Assembly: GCA_947459875.1 (NCBI GenBank)
Contig: CANHFG010000005.1
Span: 1 to 53,237, forward strand
DNA length: 53,237 nucleotides
Reading direction: 5' to 3'
Origin: Ignavibacteria bacterium
GTDB lineage: Bacteria; Bacteroidota; Ignavibacteria; Kapaibacteriales; Kapaibacteriaceae
This document shows positions 37,220 through 41,942 of the stretch, piece after piece. The position numbers and the translations under genes were made by a program. The notes below the pieces were generated by a model. That model made no database searches. It saw nothing but the letters and a program-made list of their open reading frames with translations, and was not told where the DNA came from. How positions within the stretch are numbered: position 1 is the stretch's first letter; each line of letters opens with the position of its first letter.

Positions 37220-37260
37220 GGCCGGTGGTTTTAGCAGATTGAGTTTTTGTGCACTCCAAC

Positions 37261-38991
37261 ATGTCAGACCAGCAACAGTACATCGTCACGGCCCGAAAAT
37301 GGCGTCCCCTCCGCTTTCATGACGTTGTGGGGCAGGAGCATATTACAACAACCCTGAAAAACGCCATTGCCATGAAGAGGGTGCACCATGCCTACCTCTT
37401 CACCGGCCCGCGCGGCGTTGGAAAGACCACGTGCGCACGAATCCTCGCAAGGGCTTTGAACTGCACGAATCCGACCGATCAGGAGCCATGTAACGCGTGC
37501 GAGAACTGCACGAACATGCTCGAGGGTCGCAACATGGACATCGTCGAGATCGACGGAGCGTCCAACAACAGTATCGATGACATTCGCAAGCTCCGCGACA
37601 ACGTCAAGTACGCTCCAGTATCGGGCGCTTACAAGATGTACATCATCGATGAAGTGCACATGCTTTCAACGGCGGCTTTCAATGCGCTGCTCAAGACGCT
37701 GGAAGAGCCCCCTGCCCATCTGATATTCGTTTTTGCGACCACCGAGATCAACAAGGTTCCGGCTACGATCCTGAGCCGCTGTCAGCGTTTCGACTTCCGT
37801 CGCATGGAGATCGACACCATTGCTCAGCATCTGGCCCACATCGCTGCGGCTGAGAAGATCAGCATCGACGAAGAGTCCCTCATCGCCGTTGCCAAAAAGG
37901 CTGACGGGTCCATGCGCGACTCACAGTCGATCTTTGACATGGTCGTGTCGTTCTGCGGCACGTCGATCACAATTGCCGACCTGGGCCGGGCACTGCAGTT
38001 CATTGATGCCGACTTCTACTTCACACTCAGTGATGCGATCTTGAAGCACGACATTCCGACGATGTTCGAGCAGGCGCGCGTGGTGGTTCAGCGCGGTTAC
38101 GATCTTCAGGAATGTCTCATCGGACTGCTTGAGCACTTCCGCAACATTCTCTCGGTGATCACCACAGGCGGTACGGGGCTTATCGAGGCCTCAAAGGCCG
38201 ATCTGGAGCGCTACAACGATGCCGCGTCGCGGTTCACCAAAGCCGACGTTCTGAGGATCATGACGCTGATCTCCCAGGGAGAAGCGGCCCTTCGTCAGCA
38301 TCCCCCGCAGCCTCGTGTGCGCTTCGAATTCACTCTTGTCCAGCTAGCCGGCATGGACTCGACCGTCGACCTCGGAACGGTGCTGGCGGCGCTGGCCAAT
38401 CCAGCCACCGCGCAACGAAGTGCACCGACCCTTCCGGCATCAATCCCTTCCTCGGCCAATCAGTCAGTGGTGGGCGGTGTGGCCTCGGCCCAACACATGC
38501 CGGTGCGTCTGGGCAATCCCGTTGTTATGCGTGCGTCGCCAACGCCTGTGAGTTCACTTTCGCAATCGAACATCGCCCGACGCTGGTCACAATGGGTCGA
38601 CACGCTCCCCGAGAGTCTGGTCTTCGTTCAGCAATCGGTCCAAAAGAGCCTTGTGCGGGCCGACGTTACCGATGTGGGCATAGTCCTTCACACCACCTCC
38701 ACGGTGTTGCAGCAGCGTCTGAGCGACTCGCTCCCGGCACTCAAGGAGCACCTCGCCGGCACCTACGGCGTAGCTATCGGAGTGAGTGTCGTTCTCAATA
38801 ACCGCCAGCAGGGAGCTCAGCAGGCACAGACGAGTGCTACCCCTGCCACGGCAGCTCGGGCGAACTCCGAGGACCCTACAGGCGTTGAGGCCGTCACAGT
38901 GTCGGTGCAGGGCGGTGAACAGCTGCTTCCGATCGAAGAAAAACTTGTTGAACTGTTTGGCGCGCGCCGCTCAACCGCGCCGAGGAGATAA
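37261..38991 (+). CDS. dnaX: DNA polymerase III subunit gamma/tau
   Basis: ARKWRP, GPRGVGKTT, Zn-binding Cys cluster, IIDEVHML, SRCQRFDF. Confidence 0.96.
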   Translation: MSDQQQYIVTARKWRPLRFHDVVGQEHITTTLKNAIAMKRVHHAYLFTGPRGVGKTTCARILARALNCTNPTDQEPCNACENCTNMLEGRNMDIVEIDGASNNSIDDIRKLRDNVKYAPVSGAYKMYIIDEVHMLSTAAFNALLKTLEEPPAHLIFVFATTEINKVPATILSRCQRFDFRRMEIDTIAQHLAHIAAAEKISIDEESLIAVAKKADGSMRDSQSIFDMVVSFCGTSITIADLGRALQFIDADFYFTLSDAILKHDIPTMFEQARVVVQRGYDLQECLIGLLEHFRNILSVITTGGTGLIEASKADLERYNDAASRFTKADVLRIMTLISQGEAALRQHPPQPRVRFEFTLVQLAGMDSTVDLGTVLAALANPATAQRSAPTLPASIPSSANQSVVGGVASAQHMPVRLGNPVVMRASPTPVSSLSQSNIARRWSQWVDTLPESLVFVQQSVQKSLVRADVTDVGIVLHTTSTVLQQRLSDSLPALKEHLAGTYGVAIGVSVVLNNRQQGAQQAQTSATPATAARANSEDPTGVEAVTVSVQGGEQLLPIEEKLVELFGARRSTAPRR

Positions 38992-38996
38992 CGAAC

Positions 38997-39467
38997 ATGG
39001 CATTACAACCCGGCACCAAGGCTCCGGCAGTAAAGGCACTCACCGACGGAGGGGGCAAGTTTGCTCTGTCTTCGCTGAAAGGATCGTGGGTGGTGCTGTA
39101 CTTCTATCCAAAAGACGACACGTCCGGCTGCACGGCTGAGGCCTGTGATTTCCGCGACTCGATGGCAGACCTGACAAAGCGCGGCGTTTCGGTCGTTGGT
39201 GTCAGTCCCGACAGTCCAGCTTCGCACGACAAGTTCAAAGCCAAATACGACCTGAACTTCACACTCGTTTCCGACGAAGATCATAAGGTCTGTGAGTCCT
39301 ACGACACCTGGAAGCAGAAGTCCATGTACGGTCGCACGTACATGGGGGTAGAACGAACGACCTACGTTATCGATCCGGCCGGGAAGATCGCAGCGACCTT
39401 CGAAAAGGTAAAGGTCAACGGACACGTCGATCAGGTCCGCGCGACTCTTGCTGAGCTGGGTGCGTGA
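38997..39467 (+). CDS. bcp: Thioredoxin-dependent thiol peroxidase (BCP/PrxQ)
   Basis: LYFYPKDDTSGCTAEACDFRD, ERTTYVID. Confidence 0.93.
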   Translation: MALQPGTKAPAVKALTDGGGKFALSSLKGSWVVLYFYPKDDTSGCTAEACDFRDSMADLTKRGVSVVGVSPDSPASHDKFKAKYDLNFTLVSDEDHKVCESYDTWKQKSMYGRTYMGVERTTYVIDPAGKIAATFEKVKVNGHVDQVRATLAELGA

Positions 39468-39470
39468 TCG

Positions 39471-41087
39471 ATGATCGACACGCATGCGCACATTGACACG
39501 AAAGCGTTCGATGAAGATCGTCCGTCAGTCTTGGAGCGTGCCTTCGATTCAGGAATCGAATACATCATCGTTCCTGATATCAAGCCCCCTGCCCGCCCAC
39601 ATTTGAAGAGTGTTGTTGATGCCGACCCGCGGCTGTTTCGCGGAGTTGGTATTCATCCGCATCATGCCGGCGAGGTCGGCCCCGGCGATCTTGACGACGT
39701 ATTGGAGCAGAGCTTTGAGGAAAAGGTCGTAGCCATCGGCGAGATCGGGCTGGATTACTACTATGACTTCTGCCCTCCTGAGACGCAGAAGTCGTACTTT
39801 CGTGAGCAATTGAAGATCGCAAAGTCGCGATCGCTGCCGGTGATCGTCCACAACCGGGAAGCCGACGAGGACGTTCTGCAGATCATCGAAGAGGAGCAGG
39901 ACGGCAGCCTGCGTGGCGTGCTGCACTGCTTTTCCAGCGGCGTGGACGTTCTTGAACGGGCTATCGACCTCGGTTTTCATGTGTCGTTCACGGGCAACAT
40001 CACTTTTGCGCGCTTCACACTACACGATGTTCTGCATCGTGTTCCCCGCGACCGATTCATGTTCGAAACAGACTCACCATACATGACCCCCGTACCACAC
40101 CGAGGCAAGCGTAACGAGCCTGCCTACGTGAGACTGGTAGCGGAAAAATTCTCGGAGATCACAGGAATGACATTATCGGATGTCCTTGATACGACTACCG
40201 CCACTGCCAAGCGCCTTTTTGGTCTGGCGATGGCCCTCATCGTTGTTACGATATCTGCCGTGGCCCAGCCGGTGGCCCCAGATCCGGATAATTACGACGT
40301 CGACTCCGACTATGATGTTGCCTATGAGAACTACCAAGTTGACTCATTGACCTGGGCACGTCTTGTCGCCCCGCGGTCGTTCGGTTTTGGCATCAGCGTC
40401 GGATCGAACACCATCACCGAGCGCCGGGTGTACCAGCAGATTTACCAGCGTGACCTGGCAAAAGGTCCTTTTTGGAGAGACTCCTCTGACTTCGGTGACT
40501 CTGTCACGTCGTTCTCGTATCCATCGATCCTCAGCTTCGGTGGCACCTTTGCATTTCAGGCCAGTGACCGGCTGATGCTGGAAGCCACCTACGTGAACAC
40601 CCGAAACGATAGCAAGCAGCGCCTCTACAATCTGCCGGTCATCACGACGCATATCGCAGAGGCTACGATGCTCTATGCGCTCAATCCCTACAACAAGGTG
40701 AACTTCATTCCACAGATCGGCATGGCATACGCCTACACGGACGACGGCGTGCAGACCATCTCCAAGCTGGGAATCGTTGGCGGGATAGGCGCCGGTGTGG
40801 CCATTCCGACCTCGTTCGGTACGTTCTACCCGATGTTCAATGTGCGGTTCAACTTCATGCTTGGACAGGACCTGAGGCAGGTCGTGCGCACCGAGTTTGT
40901 TGATGAAGAGGATAAGTCGAAGTCGTGGTTTGACCCTTCCATGACGCGGCCCGACCCGCTTGCTCCGAACTCCGGAACGCAGGTGTATTACGATCAGGCA
41001 ACGAACAGGTATTCGCAGGATCTGGCTGACATCACGACGATCTACTCGATCCCACGGCTGACGATCCTGTTCTATCCTAACTTCTGA
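39471..41087 (+). CDS. tatD: TatD family hydrolase fused in frame to an internal signal peptide and a C-terminal outer-membrane beta-barrel-like domain
   Basis: aa 1-250: DTHAH, GIHPH, GEIGLDY, VHNRE, HCFS, ETDSPY, AKRLF. aa 247-265: signal-like segment. aa 266-538: amphipathic strands ending in Phe. Confidence 0.85.
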   Translation: MIDTHAHIDTKAFDEDRPSVLERAFDSGIEYIIVPDIKPPARPHLKSVVDADPRLFRGVGIHPHHAGEVGPGDLDDVLEQSFEEKVVAIGEIGLDYYYDFCPPETQKSYFREQLKIAKSRSLPVIVHNREADEDVLQIIEEEQDGSLRGVLHCFSSGVDVLERAIDLGFHVSFTGNITFARFTLHDVLHRVPRDRFMFETDSPYMTPVPHRGKRNEPAYVRLVAEKFSEITGMTLSDVLDTTTATAKRLFGLAMALIVVTISAVAQPVAPDPDNYDVDSDYDVAYENYQVDSLTWARLVAPRSFGFGISVGSNTITERRVYQQIYQRDLAKGPFWRDSSDFGDSVTSFSYPSILSFGGTFAFQASDRLMLEATYVNTRNDSKQRLYNLPVITTHIAEATMLYALNPYNKVNFIPQIGMAYAYTDDGVQTISKLGIVGGIGAGVAIPTSFGTFYPMFNVRFNFMLGQDLRQVVRTEFVDEEDKSKSWFDPSMTRPDPLAPNSGTQVYYDQATNRYSQDLADITTIYSIPRLTILFYPNF

Positions 41088-41089
41088 CC

Positions 41090-41710
41090 ATGGCCTACAT
41101 CCTTACCGGCACTGCACTGTCGACGGATCTGGCGACCATTCGCGCAAAGGATGCTCCGATCGACGTGTTCCGCACAGCTGTGCACCGCATTGGTCTGCAT
41201 CTGGCCTCGGCAACACTGAATGCTTTGCCATCTCGCTCGGTAAATGTTGCCACACCTCTCGAGACCACGACCTGCTCGGTCATCGATGGACATGTCGTAC
41301 TTGTGCCTATCCTTCGGGCCGGCATGGGCATCCTCGATCCGTTCATCGCCCTGTGTCCGCAGGCATCGGTAGGATTCATCGGGCTGAAGCGCAACGAAGA
41401 GACCCTCGAGCCGCACGAATACTATCGTAACCTGCCTCCATCGGATCCGGCAACGACGTTTATCGTGCTCGACCCTATGCTTGCAACCGGCGGAAGCATG
41501 AGCGCAACTCTTTCAATGCTTCGCCCCCTACCACACCAGCGCCTGATGGCGGCCTGCCTGATCGCTGCTCCCGAAGGTATCGAGATCATCGAGCGGGAGC
41601 ACCCGGATGTGGCCCTCTTCTGCGCTGCGCAGGATCGCGAACTCAATTCACTTGGCTACATTGTTCCAGGTCTTGGCGATGCCGGTGATCGTCTGTTCGG
41701 AACGCTATAA
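41090..41710 (+). CDS. upp: Uracil phosphoribosyltransferase
   Basis: VPILRAGMG, VLDPMLATGGS, GYIVPGLGDAGDRLFGT. Confidence 0.96.
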   Translation: MAYILTGTALSTDLATIRAKDAPIDVFRTAVHRIGLHLASATLNALPSRSVNVATPLETTTCSVIDGHVVLVPILRAGMGILDPFIALCPQASVGFIGLKRNEETLEPHEYYRNLPPSDPATTFIVLDPMLATGGSMSATLSMLRPLPHQRLMAACLIAAPEGIEIIEREHPDVALFCAAQDRELNSLGYIVPGLGDAGDRLFGTL

Positions 41711-41735
41711 TCATTCACCCTGAAAGGAACCCAGC

Positions 41736-41942
41736 ATGACCATTCTTCACTTCGGCGATCACAGCATCCCCTATGCCGATATCCTCAACGCCCGCGTCAA
41801 CTGCAGCTTTAATACGGCAGAAATCTACGTCGACATTGAAGTGCAGGGAGGGGGCGTCATGAGCCTCAATCTGCCTGATTCACTGAGCTTTATGGATGCG
41901 TTCATCGACCACATCCGCAGCGAGAAGAACATTACGAAGTGA
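41736..41942 (+). CDS. Small hypothetical protein
   Basis: 68 aa, AAAGGA upstream, same strand as upp, fills the gap. Confidence 0.5.
   Translation: MTILHFGDHSIPYADILNARVNCSFNTAEIYVDIEVQGGGVMSLNLPDSLSFMDAFIDHIRSEKNITK

Follow-up and report, generated by a model that had tools for sequence, protein, structure and literature searches.

A TatD hydrolase and a predicted outer-membrane barrel joined in one conserved reading frame around an internal signal-like segment in Ignavibacteria

Introduction

Bacterial genes are expected to supply one compartment per protein and to place export signals at the N-terminus. One bacterial polyprotein that is split at an internal signal sequence is the cytochrome b/c1 precursor FbcH of Bradyrhizobium. 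Here, we describe a gene with a comparable layout in a 53,237-nucleotide (nt) stretch of DNA from an Ignavibacteria bacterium (GenBank assembly GCA_947459875.1, contig CANHFG010000005.1, positions 1 to 53,237 of the forward strand; hereafter the window), where an open reading frame (ORF) at 39471..41087 joins a TatD-family hydrolase, without a stop, to a predicted outer-membrane barrel.

The closest described counterparts of its two halves are the TatD, YcfH and YabD hydrolases of the YchF-TatD group, which are 3'-5' exonucleases, and small outer-membrane proteins such as NspA, OmpA, OmpW and the N-domain of OprF. The segment between them recalls the Bacteroidetes Q-rule, under which substrates of signal peptidase I carry Gln at position +1 (PMC5837995; see also PMC10653852); PMC5837995 gives a Q-value of 77% for Ignavibacterium album. 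The parts are therefore each of known kinds (a TatD hydrolase, a small outer-membrane barrel and a Q-rule signal), and it is the combination that differs. No published report of a fusion between TatD and an outer-membrane protein was found in the literature searched.

Results

The ORF encodes 538 amino acids (aa) plus a stop, its translation contains no internal stop, and it holds in one frame TatD, a 13-residue hydrophobic segment, an AVA/QP site (here and below, a slash marks a predicted cut) and a 273-aa domain (Table 1). The Pfam family TatD_DNase (PF01026) matches aa 2-251 across profile positions 1-253 of 253 (E 1.7e-74, 250.9 bits against a cut-off of 27), and TIGR00010 scores 238.1 bits against a cut-off of 206. 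As the PF01026 profile is matched over its full length and TIGR00010 exceeds its cut-off, nothing of TatD is missing, and its end coincides with that of the family. After ...TAKRLFGL there is no stop; past the TatD end, the frame passes through LAMALIVVTISAVA/QP, reads on as AMALIVVTISAVA/QPVAPDPD... for an extra 286 aa and reaches its terminus at ...IPRLTILFYPNF, the 273 aa that begin with QP ending in ...ILFYPNF. An earlier reading of this DNA made without database searches (the sequence-only reading) had described just such a complete TatD, without a stop at its usual end and followed by an extension, which is borne out here, and all the coordinates that it gave, those of K247-A265 and of the ATG of M233 among them, agree with the sequence (Table 1), in which Q266 starts at 40266.

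Table 1. Coordinates of the features of the fused gene in the window and of related fusions in other genomes of the class
Feature	Position	Strand	Evidence or remark
Whole fused ORF	39471..41087	+	538 aa plus stop; no indels in contigs of 4 runs
TatD/YchF-type metal-dependent hydrolase domain (predicted), aa 1-252	39471..40226	+	PF01026, TIGR00010
Candidate nested initiation site	40154..40169	+	GGAG 40154-40157, 9-nt spacer, ATG of M233 40167-40169
Putative internal Sec/signal peptidase I-type signal	40209..40265	+	n-region K247 R248 ...F250 G L252; h-region aa 253-262; c-region A263-V-A265
Predicted signal peptidase I cut A265/Q266	40265..40266	+	Q266 expected to cyclise to pyroglutamate
Acidic linker and amphipathic helix (aa 278-298)	40266..40376	+	AlphaFold2 helix 13-33 of C-domain model; alignments
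Predicted 8-stranded outer-membrane beta-barrel with long loops, aa 303-538	40377..41084	+	AlphaFold2 model, VIA-align, Foldseek, PF13505 in relatives
C-terminal strand LTILFYPNF, terminal aromatic, like an outer-membrane protein beta-signal	41058..41084	+	A1 alignment
TatD-radical SAM fusions (other genomes)	L030:1495-2853, L031:1495-2853, L033:1495-2901		In-frame, radical SAM domain (CxxxCxxC)

The fusion is confirmed as uninterrupted and conserved. Homologues of aa 255-538 comprised 45 proteins, all of 515-564 aa and all with PF01026, and a whole-genome search returned a match in 41 of 41 relatives' genomes. Within the genus, 22 of 24 genomes contain a full-length, stop-free match, the remaining two being cut by contig ends, and all 16 order-level genomes, from 10 other families of the order, carry TatD in an open frame of 454-543 aa. 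When individual loci were read, all 28 (12 from the genus and 16 from the order) proved to be single ORFs of 453-558 aa at identities down to ~39-49%, the 16 order-level loci being ORFs of 453-511 aa with the same layout. The sequence-only reading had asked whether orthologues of the clade keep the fusion and its hydrophobic segment, and they do; a stop after ...LFGL was looked for in the close relatives' genomes searched and none was found. Every relative examined conserves the two halves as well as the junction, which puts the fusion far beyond chance.

Contigs of four runs from four different studies cover the stretch at at least 99% identity and show no indels. They differ from it by 14 substitutions inside the ORF, none at the junction, of which 12 are synonymous and two are S338T and V390I; this preponderance of synonymous changes indicates that both halves are under purifying selection. 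Together, the relatives' open frames, the run contigs and the synonymous changes rule out an assembly error or a recent stop loss. Nothing was found in favour of an artefact of this kind, be it misassembly, a frameshift or a young and inconsequential loss of a stop codon, in what is a 150-contig assembly, and we give it negligible weight.

The junction statistics were drawn from 103 distinct junctions representing all fused proteins collected, along with a 19-sequence alignment (A1) reaching down to ~50% identity. In A1, residues F250, L252, A265, Q266 and P267 are invariant, and positions 253-264 vary and stay hydrophobic. The uncharged run at the junction has a median of 15 residues (range 8-20). 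A small-x-small-Q pattern, in which +1 is Gln by definition, occurs 13-29 residues past the invariant Phe in 91 of the 103 junctions; among these 91, position -1 is Ala in 79, and position -3 is A in 41, L in 23, G in 9, T in 6, S in 6, V in 4 and C in 2. The segment combines a positive n-region, an h-region within 7-15 residues, small residues at -3 and -1 and Gln at +1, as a Sec signal cleaved by signal peptidase I would. It begins at residue 247 instead of at the N-terminus, and only a product started at M233 would carry it in N-terminal position.

This junction looks like a Sec signal for signal peptidase I that obeys the Bacteroidota Q-rule, and the sequence-only proposal that K247-A265 forms a Sec signal with an AxA site agrees with the residues present, with their conservation and with the features just listed. 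The same reading had noted a +1 Gln in other exported proteins of this organism, an observation that holds genome-wide: 144 of 556 ORFs (25.9%) picked by a crude signal-peptide pattern have Gln at +1 vs 3.5% Gln overall. The genome encodes matching machinery, with two S26 signal peptidases, one Glu_cyclase_2 (E 3e-95) and four Omp85-family proteins over cut-off, and it also encodes M50 site-2 proteases and an S49 (SppA-type) peptidase. In several order-level relatives, the alignment leaves ~9-12 residues between the predicted cut and the first strand, which would be too few to span the periplasm, so an uncut chain in these relatives could not reach the outer membrane. A model of the full-length protein places the last TatD helix at 235-249 and a further helix at 251-264; as its predicted local distance difference test score (pLDDT) falls below 50 at 260-266 and its predicted template-modelling score (pTM) is 0.47, no fixed packing of TatD and barrel is predicted.

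The end of TatD itself differs between fused and unfused proteins. For this comparison, 104 distinct fused junction segments were set against 102 distinct unfused TatD segments (from TatDs of at least 240 aa); to form the unfused set, we took the 120 best short homologues, dropped two whose long tails are not hydrophobic and counted three truncated fused sequences with the fused set instead. At the column of residue 247, Lys or Arg occupies 86% of fused vs 40% of unfused sequences, and Asp or Glu 0% of fused vs 25% of unfused ones. This shift supports the view that the tail of TatD has been adapted to a signal role, with its last helix serving as the n-region, and so backs the sequence-only suggestion that this helix does double duty. 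At the neighbouring T246 column (40206-40208), 99 of 102 unfused sequences have Asn; of the 104 fused ones, 68 have Thr and 29 have Asn.

The ATG of M233 stands behind GGAG and AGGA, as had been pointed out from the sequence: GGAG lies at -13..-10, and AGGA directly abuts the ATG. An xCG-GAG codon pair that yields GGAG at -13..-10, together with the ATG, is present in 12 of 12 genus loci, and neighbouring synonymous sites vary. The 39 residues that lead up to the hydrophobic segment contain a Met in 99 of 104 fused vs 31 of 102 unfused segments. At either of two columns (M233, or the Met of an 'xMTT' motif 9 codons before the Phe) the counts are 88 of 104 vs 11 of 102, and at the M233 column 49% of fused vs 7% of unfused TatDs. 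In a FastTree phylogeny of 96 full-length fused proteins, the Met state changed at least 13 times, and M233 and M241 take each other's place. Deep lineages mostly have the 'xMTT' Met. The M233 Met is characteristic of a clade of 56 with good support, to which the window's own genome belongs, and it turns up again on three occasions next to sisters with 'xMTT'.

Shine-Dalgarno-like (SD-like) sequences accompany these codons. A core within -18..-4 precedes 18 of 23 junction Met codons vs 17 of the 214 remaining Met codons inside these genes, and GAGG is found at -12..-9 in five of eight loci whose Met lies 9-10 codons before the conserved Phe. For reference, SD-like use in the window's own genome amounts to 51 of 166 signal-bearing starts vs 9% at random positions. 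A product started at the 'xMTT' Met would have a canonical signal peptide of about 29 aa, with 2-3 Lys or Arg in the n-region. From this pattern of codons and motifs, we lean slightly towards a working nested start at the ATG at 40167. Separately, three database proteins of 242-267 aa (P0052, P0063 and P0082) start at the 'xMTT' Met or a few codons before it, so gene callers already call the barrel alone from that start, perhaps on contigs truncated upstream.

The C-terminal domain was modelled with AlphaFold2 from a 20-member alignment (A2), which gave an N-terminal helix followed by long antiparallel strands (pLDDT 86.6, pTM 0.71). A full VIA-align search, covering model residues 34-273, matched Legionella porin III (9nh2_A; Z 18.7, root-mean-square deviation [rmsd] 3.8, 167 of 224 residues aligned), NspA (1p4t_A; Z 18.2, rmsd 2.3, 150 of 155), the OmpA membrane domain (3nb3_A; Z 17.9, rmsd 2.0, 130 of 137), the OprF N-domain (4rlc_A; Z 17.3, rmsd 1.8, 127 of 135) and OmpW (2f1t_A; Z 17.0, rmsd 3.2, 165 of 183), vs a Z of about 10 for soluble 8-stranded barrels such as YceI. 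The top Foldseek matches were likewise all outer-membrane barrels, with template-modelling (TM) scores of only 0.3-0.42. PF13505 (OMP_b-brl) matches 7 of the 20 A2 members (best E 4.9e-7), and one protein, P0005, carries a precomputed match to it; a profile of the domain run against chains of the PDB gave nothing useful, the best E being 0.62 to Ail/OmpX. The last residue is Phe in 17 of the 19 A1 rows, where P528 and R529 are invariant, and among 25 loci it is F in 19 and W in 3, the remaining three having L, M or an extended tail. The acidic linker and amphipathic helix that precede the barrel are absent or much shorter in order-level relatives.

On the evidence of the model, the C-terminal domain is an 8-stranded outer-membrane barrel with extra loops, the strand count being taken from the fold matches and not from coordinates. 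The sequence-only reading had counted about eight strands and a terminal Phe and had proposed AlphaFold as a check on the barrel; the 8-stranded matches, the ...PNF terminus and the confident model all fit that description. A location in the outer membrane is predicted, and the genome holds Omp85/BamA genes. We take the barrel to be a generic small outer-membrane protein of the OmpA/NspA/OmpW kind.

Within the TatD half, H5, H7, E91, H127, H152 and D201 are invariant in A1; the metal ligands and catalytic residues are presumably among these conserved His, Glu and Asp residues, and nuclease or hydrolase activity is predicted from the family match. A secreted TatD was considered and rejected: the chain has no N-terminal signal and opens with the family's MIDTHAHI metal site. 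In its genome, which is 99.4% complete, PF01026 matches no gene other than the fused one, and a search with the protein likewise gave no second TatD-like match there. All 24 genus relatives have a second, weak TatD-like match over aa ~58-208 (30-35% identity, E 2e-14 to 2e-10), in frames of about 220-260 aa. When the 12 genus orthologues are compared, synonymous variation is lowest at 39765-39845 and 40005-40031 (codons 99-125 and 179-187), below the level of the region before M233, and this could be due to codon bias at invariant residues or to an embedded element.

Stand-alone forms of the barrel domain are rare. A profile of the domain retrieved only 74 cluster representatives among 1.84 billion proteins. 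Thirty-four of them are 465-543 aa long, and in 33 of these the domain starts at residue 269-297. When 25 shorter representatives were read, 13 were found to begin inside TatD and are thus fragments of the fusion, three are cut in or after the signal, one is odd, six weak matches are ordinary outer-membrane proteins, and two (P0061 and P0093) are stand-alone barrels with an N-terminal signal of their own. Of 301 genomes sampled evenly across the phylum, 19 have the domain: the window's own genome, all 16 sampled order relatives, one genome from another family of the class (in a frame of 501 aa) and one weak case. Five other genomes of the class yielded one barrel fusion, one TatD alone and three fusions of TatD with a radical SAM domain (Table 1), of which L030 matches TIGR04038, the 'TatD family nuclease-associated radical SAM protein', above its cut-off (E 1e-58); the window's own genome has no TIGR04038 match above cut-off. 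The same TatD has therefore merged with different downstream partners in neighbouring lineages. One genus relative, G021, holds a second, diverged barrel copy at a contig start (G021:C49:3-871, in two pieces, 44-45% identical to aa 246-538) besides its full-length fusion.

The surrounding genes are closely packed. A PrxQ/Bcp-type peroxiredoxin gene ends 3 nt before the fused ORF, with dnaX farther upstream beyond it, and upp starts 2 nt after. From 37249 to 41710, dnaX, prxQ/bcp, the tatD-barrel gene and upp lie on one strand with gaps of 5, 3 and 2 nt, a packing that looks like a single operon. A sigma-70-type promoter scan of 38900-41800, a model outside which other promoter types fall, found no sites vs 1.0 expected, and the five terminator-like hairpins in the same interval, vs 2.0 +/- 1.6 expected, are not notable. 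At 39720-39837, contigs of the RNA-labelled runs X17 and X19 break, with higher depth downstream (9.3 to 36.8 in X19), and in DNA run X10 short contigs of other organisms match the same conserved stretch, which codes for GEIGLDYYYDF; the position is probably an assembly break and not a transcript start.

Discussion

We consider it probable that this gene is an old, selectively maintained in-frame fusion of TatD and a small outer-membrane barrel, joined by what was the barrel's signal peptide, and that its precursor is processed. The n-region of that former signal would now be supplied by the last helix of TatD. Ribosomes starting at 39471 would make a 538-aa precursor whose TatD part folds in the cytoplasm, and the hydrophobic segment 253-264 would engage Sec with the N-terminus inside and the C-terminus outside. 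The C-terminal 273 aa would then be translocated, signal peptidase I would cut after A265, and the genome's glutaminyl cyclase would cyclise Q266 to leave a barrel that starts with pyroglutamate and that could be inserted into the outer membrane by the beta-barrel assembly machinery through its C-terminal Phe strand. The TatD product, 265 aa long and ending in a short hydrophobic tail, would stay at the inner membrane, perhaps to be freed later by a signal-peptide peptidase or site-2 protease. The nested ATG at 40167, behind its GGAG, probably also gives rise to the pre-barrel alone with a 33-aa signal peptide, which would uncouple the amount of barrel from that of TatD and would be sensible if the cell needs more barrel than enzyme.

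Export, cut and nested start are in this account inferred from sequence features. For the cut, these are the invariant A-Q at -1/+1, the short h-region and the short linkers in some relatives. The sequence-only reading had offered a precursor cut by signal peptidase and a nested start as an either-or choice. Sequence support was found for both, but the choice itself dissolves: with no stop codon after TatD and no other TatD gene in the genome, every TatD molecule must be made as the full-length chain, and as all TatD translation runs into the barrel, a nested start can only add to the precursor.

Several observations weigh against this account. For the nested start, 5 of 104 fused junctions, and 2 of 25 loci, have no junction Met. 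The Met and SD-like enrichments compare one clade with unrelated TatDs, so that the counts lack independence and are inflated by shared ancestry. Met is a mild replacement at its columns, which are hydrophobic, and the SD-like cores derive from Glu codons of conserved TatD residues. Among about 351 windows compared, the dip in synonymous variation at codons 225-230 comes only 11th, with lower values at codons 99-113, 120-125 and 179-187, and this test is not decisive. For the export signal, the call relies on patterns of our own and on conservation, and 12 of 103 junctions lack small-x-small-Q, although these still end in a signal-like manner (for example FA/N, ASA/E or AA/H). In bacteria, signal peptidase rarely cuts behind a folded domain of 250 aa. 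For the barrel, the window's own C-domain matches no Pfam family at E<=1 and no NCBIfam model. The stretch is present as contigs in six RNA-labelled runs, and such contigs speak to presence and not to transcription, transcript ends or strand.

The Met and SD-like enrichment upstream of the signal, together with the canonical signal peptide that would start at the 'xMTT' Met, could also be read to mean that the outer-membrane barrel comes solely from the internal start (M233, or the 'xMTT' Met elsewhere) and that the full-length chain is an unprocessed by-product, cytoplasmic or degraded. As the fused gene is the sole TatD, however, each TatD would then drag along an unfolded 273-aa barrel precursor, a costly and aggregation-prone burden in a layout that is nevertheless order-wide; some junctions have no Met, and in the full-length chain the hydrophobic segment would be just as free to act. 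We regard this explanation as unlikely. A permanent signal-anchor is a further explanation, under which an uncleaved two-domain membrane protein would tether a periplasmic or inner-membrane-proximal barrel to cytoplasmic TatD. Type II proteins with large cytoplasmic N-domains are common, and soluble 8-stranded barrels such as YceI do match the model, but far less well than outer-membrane barrels. The uncharged run, at its median of 15 residues, is short for a stable membrane helix, the invariant A and Q at -1 and +1 are those of cleaved proteins in Q-rule organisms, and the terminal aromatic strand and the PF13505 matches among relatives point to the outer membrane, all of which makes an uncleaved protein decidedly unlikely.

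The fusion might also be functional in its own right, with the barrel's signal bringing TatD to the Sec site and leaving it tail-anchored at the inner membrane in a 1:1 ratio with the outer-membrane barrel, the two forming an envelope route for nucleic-acid uptake or degradation and the nested start tuning their ratio. The salvage gene upp directly downstream can be cited for such a route, which we nonetheless hold to be quite improbable. The related suggestion in the sequence-only reading, that the gene couples an outer-membrane channel to DNA processing, found no support: the barrel is of a generic kind, the neighbours are dnaX, prxQ and upp, and sister TatDs are fused to radical SAM proteins. 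The varied mergers argue for accidents of gene order that were later kept, more than for a DNA-related role of the barrel. Returning to the processed precursor, we see in the fusion a matter of biogenesis and expression and not of DNA handling.

Across an order, then, a cytoplasmic housekeeping enzyme and a predicted outer-membrane protein share one frame, which apparently supplies two compartments, and the enzyme's last helix appears to have been taken over, and adapted, to serve as a signal peptide's n-region. Should the cut be true, bacteria would offer here a natural and widespread example of signal peptidase I cutting downstream of a large folded domain, and a natural route to a tail-anchored cytoplasmic enzyme as well. 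Should the nested start be true, it would be a clear case of two unrelated proteins made from the same frame. For annotation, the fused proteins are named 'TatD family hydrolase' in databases, and when pipelines place this label on proteins of 450-560 aa, it hides an outer-membrane protein family.

In comparison with the known systems, the N-terminal half shares with the TatD, YcfH and YabD hydrolases the full-length profile and the conserved His, Glu and Asp residues. It differs from unfused TatDs in having no stop after ...LF.L, in a last helix shifted to Lys/Arg, in 286 extra aa and, for most fused proteins, in a Thr where unfused TatDs have a near-invariant Asn. The C-terminal half is predicted to share its fold with NspA, OmpA, OprF-N and OmpW, at 10-12% sequence identity, and has a terminal aromatic strand as they do; long extra loops, an N-terminal helix and a signal that is not at the N-terminus of the ORF set it apart from known 8-stranded outer-membrane barrels. 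With Q-rule substrates, as outlined in the reports cited above, it shares Ala at -1, Gln at +1 and a glutaminyl cyclase gene in the genome, the difference being a putative signal 250 residues inside the chain. The TatD-radical SAM (TIGR04038) fusions in other families of the class show the same TatD orthologue reading into a downstream partner, in proteins of 453-469 aa, but that partner is cytoplasmic and has no signal peptide, and the association is already known and named. The layout is closest to that of FbcH, in which, likewise, one ORF yields two functional proteins around an internal signal presumed to be cut by signal peptidase; the present gene, as known from sequence and model, also sets two complete modules around an internal signal-like sequence. 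FbcH joins two subunits of one membrane complex, whereas the gene described here joins a cytoplasmic enzyme to an unrelated, predicted outer-membrane protein, perhaps with a nested start of its own.

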